Source of the DNA: a virus | Taxonomy: Duplodnaviria; Heunggongvirae; Uroviricota; Caudoviricetes | Strand: one strand, 5' to 3' | Virus record (IMG/VR): IMGVR_UViG_2939521961_000009 | DNA length: 64,000 bases | In this document: piece after piece, positions 26,059 to 27,136 of the stretch | Numbering within the stretch: position 1 is the stretch's first letter | Layout: every line of letters begins with the position of its first letter | The notes under the pieces: generated by a model | The model's input: the letters and a program-made list of their open reading frames with translations, nothing else | Told to the model about the DNA's origin: nothing | The model's database searches: none | Program-made: the position numbers and the translations under genes

Positions 26059-26796
26059 TCATTCACTCTCTTTCAAACCAGTTTTAACTGTTTGTGGTTT
26101 TGGGTAAGGCTGGACTTTGAATAGCTTTGTGTTGAGGCGTTTTCTGGCCCTCTTGTTCAGAAACCGGATGTAACGAAACTGTCGGAACTTATGCACACTG
26201 GCTCTGTCGATATTAGCCCTCAGATGTTCACCTCGTTGTCCGCCTCGTTTAATGGCACTCCTGCAAATCTCGTGATACCACTCGCCATCAAGTTCATAGA
26301 ATGTTGATTCATGGCTGCCTACATAATCAAAATTGCTTGCCTGATACACGACACCAAGACAGCCACAACGCTCATCTGCAAACGACTGAACCCACTGTAC
26401 CTGCGGATAAAGCTGCCTGATTAGCTTGAGCGCGTAACTGATTGCCCTTGATTCGGAGTTTCTCGGCATACAGTCATGCATCCATAGCCGGTTAAGCTCC
26501 ATATATTCTCGGTTCTGCGTACCCGTTACGACGCGTGCACCACTGTTTGGGTTAAGGGCGTAACCCCATTGCATTACGCCAACAAGTTCCCGTTCTGAAA
26601 ATATACCCAGATGAAGGTAGGAATTATTTACGAAACGGTGGCTGTAATGTTTATTGACGATAACCAGTCTGGCCAGCCAGCAACTTATTGTCTCAACCCG
26701 CAACTCACGGGAGCCATAACCAACGATATTGTCGTTATAGCGAATAAGTTCAGGCGTGCTGATGATACGGGATGTGACTTGCTTTCTGTTCCCCAC
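26059..26796 (-). CDS. mom: Mom-like DNA modification protein (245 aa; apparent GTG start)
   Basis: Immediately downstream of and overlapping a Com-like zinc-finger gene, at the extreme right end as in Mu; size matches. Confidence 0.65.
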
Positions 26797-26950
26797 GACA
26801 GGATTTCCTTGTGTATGTGGGGTGCTCTGTGGCGCTCGGAGATGTGATTTGATTGAGGGTTTTACAGCGCGGACATTTTACTTCCAGATAACTGAAACTG
26901 GCCCGTGCCAGTAGCTTATTGCAGTGTCGGCACCGTATGTTTCGATACAT
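26750..26950 (-). CDS. com: Com-like zinc-finger translational activator (about 66 aa from [14 protein letters not shown])
   Basis: CxxC...CPRC pattern and sequence resemble recalled Mu Com; AGGAGG upstream; overlaps mom start. Confidence 0.7.
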
Positions 26951-26995
26951 GGCCGCATAACCTCCTGCTTTGTTGTTGATGCCTTTCTCATGCAA

Positions 26996-27136
26996 TCGAT
27001 CGACAAAAACGATCGATTCGATTTGTTTAATTGATACAACAAATAGATTTAAAAGTCATCAACAATGATTCAGGGCGGTGATTATTTACTTAAAGAAACG
27101 AAGAGTTAGGTGGTGAAAACGATCATAAAATGATCA
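26996..27136. promoter_or_regulatory. Candidate Dam-dependent regulatory region upstream of com-mom (four GATC sites in 140 bp)
   Basis: GATC at 26998, 27011, 27121, 27132; analogous to the Dam-regulated mom promoter region of Mu. Confidence 0.45.

Follow-up and report, generated by a model that had tools for sequence, protein, structure and literature searches.

In phage Mu the GUG start codon and the ribosome-binding site of mom lie in a CCCAC...GUGGG stem-loop, with a small Com-binding hairpin immediately 5' of it. What Com does in general has been described (PMC3378877 and PMC3299994) and the mom promoter of Mu is known to be weak, dependent on the activator C and repressed by OxyR unless the GATC sites upstream are methylated by Dam (PMC3378877). 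The substrate of the Mom enzyme is Gly-tRNA(Gly), whose glycine is passed to adenine N6 in duplex DNA to give an adduct that rearranges to the carbamoylmethyl form, and an HTH-like insertion is essential for the activity of Mu Mom (PMC13219725). Key residues of the Mu enzyme have been given as H48, Y49, R101, S114, D139 and Y149 (PMC7261163) and required residues as W48, H58, Y59, R111, S124, D149, R151, Y159 and W181 in the numbering of a 241-aa form (PMC13219725), which is that of PMC7261163 plus 10. Sp18 is predicted to be an intact Mu-like phage (PMC2669165) and has genes for Mom and for the regulators of Mom in the corresponding place (PMC3299994), and Sp18-like phages are often inserted into other prophages (PMC10132054). 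The com-mom module is already known, with Mom homologues of Sp18-type phages present in the literature and in RefSeq, where the names Com family and Mom have been given in many genomes.

The locus described here was found in a stretch of 64,000 nucleotides, referred to as the window, and its region matches the E. coli strain War chromosome (NZ_CP074717.1) with 100% identity. We consider it highly probable that an Sp18-type Mu-like prophage here carries its com-mom operon and that this works as in phage Mu. The sole point that is mildly new is its control region, which departs from the textbook layout of Mu.

The com and mom genes and the hairpins at their junction

Mom is encoded on the minus strand by a 245-aa ORF with a GTG start and a TGA stop (26059..26796). 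The ORF matches Pfam Mom (PF25680) with 257.8 bits, the cutoff being 27.1 (E 8.5e-77) and, in PHROG, phrog_1384 'Mom-like DNA modification protein'. An initial annotation of the region had assigned the ORF to Mom, and alignment with Mu Mom bears this out, with 79.2% identity, all 231 residues covered and the mutation-defined residues of the Mu enzyme identical at nine of nine positions (W40, H50, Y51, R103, S116, D141, R143, Y151 and W173). The same annotation had Mom modifying adenine, which is right as to the target, while the chemistry is to be updated to the transfer of glycine from Gly-tRNA(Gly) followed by rearrangement (PMC13219725). A solved structure, PDB 8bv8 'Methylcarbamoylase mom', is matched with an E-value of 6e-124 and is likewise 79% identical. 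This alignment has no gaps from residue 5 to 233 and that to Mu Mom none from residue 9 to 233, and the HTH-like insertion (about residues 175-209) falls inside the gap-free block and so is kept. In comparison with three other E. coli alleles the dN/dS of mom is 0.04-0.14, which indicates strong purifying selection on the gene. In the annotation of the source genome the ORF is labelled 'hypothetical protein', and neither NCBIfam nor PADLOC returned a match for Mom or Com or for the divergent and cargo genes. Homologues of Mom with 63-78% identity were found in other genera at seven loci with no detectable com ORF upstream; in one of these (L012) mom comes directly after gin.

The com gene (26750..26950, minus strand, ATG start) encodes a predicted zinc-ribbon translational activator of 66 aa and overlaps mom by 47 nt, the overlap being 41-56 nt across nine relatives. 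Its product matches PF10122 (Zn_ribbon_Com) with 46.8 bits, where the cutoff is 22.9 (E 2e-12), and also phrog_13819 'gpCom control of modification'. Its identity to Mu Com is 49%, and it keeps the four cysteines of the zinc ribbon (C7, C10, C27 and C30). The Pfam matches of the two ORFs are far better than chance would give. A Shine-Dalgarno sequence, AGGAGG, can be read 10 nt 5' of the ATG (26961..26966, minus strand). Both ORFs are therefore present as the initial annotation had them, with a Com-like zinc-finger ORF over the start of the 245-aa ORF, and the Mu-like com-mom arrangement that it proposed is in agreement with the Com match, the overlap, the position at the prophage right end and a conserved hairpin predicted to block translation.

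This translation-inhibition hairpin (26791..26822, minus strand) is predicted in both the MFE and the centroid folds, in which CCCCAC (26822-26817) pairs with GUGGGG (26796-26791) in a stem that would bury the mom GUG start (26796-26794) and its Shine-Dalgarno sequence AAGGA (26810-26806). Five core pairs of the stem are present and 100% paired in seven of seven enterobacterial sequences, and a hairpin over the start codon is also predicted in Mu and nine other relatives; in Neptunomonas, Parathalassolituus and a deltaproteobacterial MAG the start codons lie in stems of other sequence. Just 5' of the inhibition hairpin alignment and covariation point to a putative Com-binding hairpin, GAGCGCCACAGAGCAC (26822..26837, minus strand), consisting of a 4-bp stem with one C.A mismatch and a 6-nt loop. 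It aligns with the Mu hairpin GAAUGCCUGCGAGCAU, which we take from the 1991 Mu literature to be the Com site, and among the seven enterobacterial sequences compensatory changes are seen at three of the four stem pairs, the stem reading AUGC/GCAU in Mu and GCAC/GUGC in Edwardsiella. The folding energy of the whole fragment is no better than that of shuffled sequences (z -0.4 to -1.3), as is expected with hairpin elements so short, and the support for the hairpins is for this reason comparative and not thermodynamic.

GATC sites and the control region upstream of com

The initial annotation had drawn attention to four GATC sites clustered within 140 bp upstream of com. The sites are indeed there, at 26998, 27011, 27121 and 27132 (a span of 138 bp, with a fifth site at 27167), but their clustering is not unusual. 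A cluster of four in 138 bp occurs once in the 64-kb window, and 76% of random placements of the 202 GATC sites of the window yield at least one such cluster, so that significance by count was rejected.

The two sites closest to com lie in an inverted repeat with 9-bp arms, AATCGATCG-N7-CGATCGATT (26994..27018). The pair 27011/26998 aligns with GATC II/III of Mu, with a spacing of 13 bp in both, and this pair and its spacing are invariant in six lineages whose flanking sequences have diverged (the one described here, Mu, Edwardsiella, Symbiopectobacterium, Apirhabdus and another Enterobacteriaceae genome). When these six are anchored on the pair, hardly any column of the alignment is invariant outside the two GATCs and the bases that directly flank them. 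The dyad agrees with the OxyR half-site consensus at seven of ten positions, exactly as does Mu's own site, and in the gtr system of P22 the OxyR half-sites are likewise GATC pairs 13 bp apart (PMC2909390). We conclude that the dyad is likely to be a Dam-sensitive OxyR half-site orthologous to GATC II/III of Mu. In non-enteric relatives that carry com the GATC sites are absent and, as other Mom homologues have no detectable com, neither the Com nor the Dam layer of control is universal in the Mom family.

The second pair (27121..27135) lies within a divergent ORF. It is missing from the otherwise 95%-identical allele of strain 23CRST047 and its spacing of 11 bp is unfit for an OxyR half-site, so we regard it as probably incidental and outside the control region. 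We also considered whether 27121/27132 and the sequence downstream might be a displaced copy of Mu Pmom and rejected this, as 32 of 300 dinucleotide shuffles scored at least as high as the suggestive local alignment, and the segment encodes part of the divergent gene product and is absent in the sister allele.

Dam-dependent control as for Mu mom, the further claim of the initial annotation, thus fits as far as two sites orthologous to those of Mu are concerned, while the third Mu site, the C-box and the promoter geometry are not conserved. GATC I of Mu, with its 18-bp spacing, is not present, its position here reading ...CAATTAAACAAATCGAATC, and between the GATC sites and com there is no Mu C-box (CCATAACC-like), T6 run or TAAGAT -10 element; a CCATAACC-like C-box is visible in Mu and in four relatives. 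From the GATC pair to the com ATG there are 51 nt, compared with 78 nt in Mu and 76-83 nt in Mu and most relatives, and a short layout is also found in Edwardsiella (54 nt from pair to com). With this spacing, and with the AGGAGG of com at 26966-26961, the geometry of Mu, in which the GATC sites lie at about -57/-70, is impossible here, and the position left for the dyad is over the promoter or immediately 3' of it.

Our scan for sigma-70-like promoters gave none between com and a strong terminator-like hairpin upstream of it (27221..27250, minus strand; 13 pairs followed by a T-rich tail). This is in keeping with a promoter that needs an activator, as that of Mu does (PMC3378877). The terminator-like hairpin would shield com-mom from read-through from the cargo genes. 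Two weak candidates may mark the promoter. The first, ATGACT-17-TATCAA (27059-27031), reads ATGACA-17-TATCAA in the allele of strain 23CRST047, where the upstream DNA is otherwise different; the second is a -10-like AAAGAT of the sister alleles, which here is AAAGGC (26986-26981), the conserved final T being lost. A homologue of the late transcription activator C of Mu is encoded immediately upstream of the lysozyme gene (54104..54529, minus strand). It matches Pfam Mor (PF08765, E 2.8e-32) and phrog_532 'late transcriptional activator' and is 39% identical to Mu C. No binding motif for it was shared among the regions upstream of lys, I and P, so none could be traced to com.

On the other side of the dyad lies the divergent gene (27066..27527, plus strand; phrog_26524), marked 'frameshifted' by PGAP and present in an intact version of 154 aa in strain 2013C-3250. 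Its ATG is 115 bp from that of com, so that the two genes share the control region and the GATC dyad. It has no Pfam, NCBIfam or PADLOC match; the C-terminus of its product is zinc-ribbon-like. The position of the gene beside com recalls the divergent momP2 promoter of Mu.

These features leave room for a tentative alternative in which Mom and Com act as in Mu and transcription has been rewired, the Dam/OxyR dyad overlapping or lying just downstream of the core promoter in the style of P22 gtr and agn43, rather than upstream of a C-box, with OxyR as a direct repressor and the dyad shared with the gene at 27066. We judge this possible, though on the doubtful side. The distance of merely 51 nt from the GATC pair to the com ATG argues for it, as does the lack of a Mu-type C-box. 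Given a leader of 18-25 nt as in Mu the pair would lie at about -25 to -40, comparable to GATC3/4 of P22 gtr at -46/-33 (PMC2909390), whereas the weak candidate promoter at 27059-27031 would place the dyad at about +7 to +31, and in the short layout of Edwardsiella (54 nt) a TAGATT follows the pair after 9 nt. However, the consensus scan picks up neither of the candidate promoters, at 26986-26981 the candidate -10 reads AAAGGC without the conserved final T, and an OxyR tetramer needs a second half-site, for which nothing convincing was found. A further form of this idea, that in the Sp18 lineage and an Edwardsiella relative the dyad came to lie over the core promoter, with com-mom and the divergent gene sharing it, we consider unlikely. 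If it were true com-mom could follow an epigenetic ON/OFF switch of the gtr/agn43 style instead of the upstream operator and C-box of Mu, and some lysogens might express Mom and modify the host DNA heterogeneously.

It is similarly improbable that the GATC sites upstream of com are there by chance or for another purpose, such as a phage-activator site or a hairpin, and that expression is independent of Dam. Four sites in 138 bp are to be expected in most 64-kb sequences of such composition, two of the four are in coding sequence, locally the region resembles Mu Pmom no more than shuffles do and the inverted repeat scores as a terminator-like hairpin on the plus strand. Against this, the pair 27011/26998 is exact, with its 13-bp spacing, in six diverged lineages including Mu, for which control by Dam and OxyR is established (PMC3378877), and the non-enteric relatives have no such sites at all. 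A module working as in Mu is the reading we favour, and the points that count against it are the missing GATC I, C-box, T6 run and TAAGAT, the short spacing of 51 nt, the identity of only 39% between the C homologue and Mu C and the C.A mismatch in the putative Com-binding stem.

The prophage, its insertion site and its cargo

The element that carries com-mom is an Sp18-type Mu-like transposable prophage inserted in the portal gene of a lambdoid prophage. Its right end (25931..26058) was located from shared junctions, four independent insertions in E. coli genomes aligning only from TATAGCGCGG (25931) on, while the flanks of the other insertions differ (sbmA, a wzz-family gene and an alcohol dehydrogenase gene). 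The stop codon of mom is 128 bp from this end, making com-mom the last genes of the prophage, and the location given by the initial annotation, the extreme right end, is accordingly correct. Within the right end there are three TTTGATAC direct repeats (25948, 25970 and 26005), likely to be transposase-binding sites; a GTATCAA core also occurs upstream of com at 27031-27037, perhaps by coincidence. The prophage ends read TATAGCGCGG... on one side and GTAACCAGG... inward at the other and are not the TG...CA termini of Mu.

To the left of 25931 there is a lambda-family portal gene that in the PGAP annotation is without its N-terminus, and the missing piece is found about 38.8 kb away, just outside the window. 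A 5-bp duplication, ACTGG, is present at 25926-25930, with its second copy beyond the window at about 64770 (17929-17933 in locus L003). Since the portal gene is split in two fragments and ACTGG is duplicated we conclude that the Mu-like prophage transposed into it. The prophage genes include those for a Mu transposase, a B-like ATPase, Gam, a Mor/C-family activator and Mu-type head and tail proteins, as well as an invertible segment with gin. Of 5426 E. coli genomes 233 hold near-identical copies, inserted at many different places in the chromosome, from which we conclude that the element is active, and in O157:H7 genomes the copies of the region are 98.7% identical. A module in decay, unexpressed or non-functional and left over in a dead prophage, is a very improbable reading even though the divergent neighbour gene is frameshifted, the Mom ORF is annotated as 'hypothetical protein' in the source and the left end of the prophage is outside the window, as com and mom are both intact, the dN/dS of mom is 0.04-0.14, copies with 100% identity lie at unrelated insertion sites, the full Mu-like gene set including the transposase is present with portal fragments on both sides and Sp18 is predicted to be intact (PMC2669165).

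Between gin (30232-30792) and com there is about 3.3 kb of cargo on the minus strand (27566-30132), where Mu has nothing. It encodes a SASA-esterase/DUF6645 protein of 682 aa (28084-30132, minus strand), a DUF1378 protein (27847-28026, minus strand) and a DUF826 protein (27566-27811, minus strand), families typical of the late regions of Stx and lambdoid phages. Between Sp18-like copies the cargo genes are 43-72% identical and so diverge more than com-mom.

A further element of the prophage is curious given the use of Gly-tRNA(Gly) by Mom. It is a tRNA-like element (46820-46899, plus strand) antisense to all of the prophage genes and located between the F-like head-morphogenesis and the G-like virion-morphogenesis genes. 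Rfam tRNA scores it at 31 bits in a short-range search, the gathering score being 29, and its label in PGAP is 'tRNA-OTHER'. Its acceptor, D and T arms fit, but the anticodon region is 24 nt long and folds to a 4-nt loop, UCCG. ARAGORN finds no tRNA in the prophage, so in place of a tRNA(Gly) that could feed Mom there is just this degenerate tRNA-like element.

Proposed working of the module and comparison with known systems

The module is a genuine and very probably functional com-mom operon, orthologous to that of Mu. We propose that com-mom would be transcribed during late lytic growth, with transcription probably gated by the C-family late activator and probably also by Dam methylation of the pair 27011/26998, which would keep OxyR off the dyad operator. 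Com would then bind the mRNA just 5' of the hairpin that hides the mom ribosome-binding site and GUG, so allowing Mom to be translated. Mom, with its predicted GNAT fold, would take glycine from Gly-tRNA(Gly) and attach it at N6 to adenines of double-stranded DNA, rearrangement of this adduct would give N6-carbamoylmethyl-adenine and the DNA of the progeny phage would be shielded from many restriction enzymes. A very probably functional Mom anti-restriction system in an STEC-associated Mu-like prophage would help to explain how such phages move between strains with different restriction systems. What is known of Mom or Com is unchanged by the module; the Sp18-type lineage does lend itself to comparison on the question of what is essential in the multilayered control of mom in Mu.

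The closest described system is com-mom of Mu itself (Mu_52/Mu_53, AF083977), to which the module corresponds in its proteins (79% identity for Mom and 49% for Com), gene order, overlap and position as the last genes before the right end. As in Mu the GTG start of mom lies within a CCCAC/GUGGG hairpin, a 13-bp GATC pair is found in an upstream dyad and the gene for a C-family activator adjoins lys. In contrast to Mu Mom the protein described here has two more residues near the N-terminus and a C-terminal tail of 12 residues, and the in-frame upstream ATG that gives the 241-aa form of Mu Mom is missing. The control region differs in having no GATC I, C-box, T6 run or TAAGAT and in the position of the GATC pair, 27 nt closer to com, and where in Mu gin abuts the mom promoter here the cargo of about 3.3 kb and the divergent gene intervene between gin and com.

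The phage type is that of Sp18, a Mu-like prophage of E. coli O157:H7 Sakai, and of the Sp18-like phages of STEC, which likewise are often inserted in other prophages; the insertion in a lambdoid portal gene and small allelic differences, including the frameshift of the divergent gene, set the present copy apart from Sp18. With the Dam/OxyR epigenetic switches of P22 gtr and E. coli agn43 the module shares a 13-bp GATC pair, here in a likely OxyR dimer half-site, possibly near or over the core promoter (PMC2909390), but whereas P22 gtr has two pairs 64 bp apart and a middle half-site there is one 13-bp pair here, the second pair having 11-bp spacing and being in coding sequence. In FluMu, Pnm1 and phage B3 a Com homologue also precedes a DNA-modification gene at the right end (PMC3299994); in those phages the gene encodes a non-specific m6A methyltransferase in the place of Mom, while the gene that follows com here encodes a true Mom.
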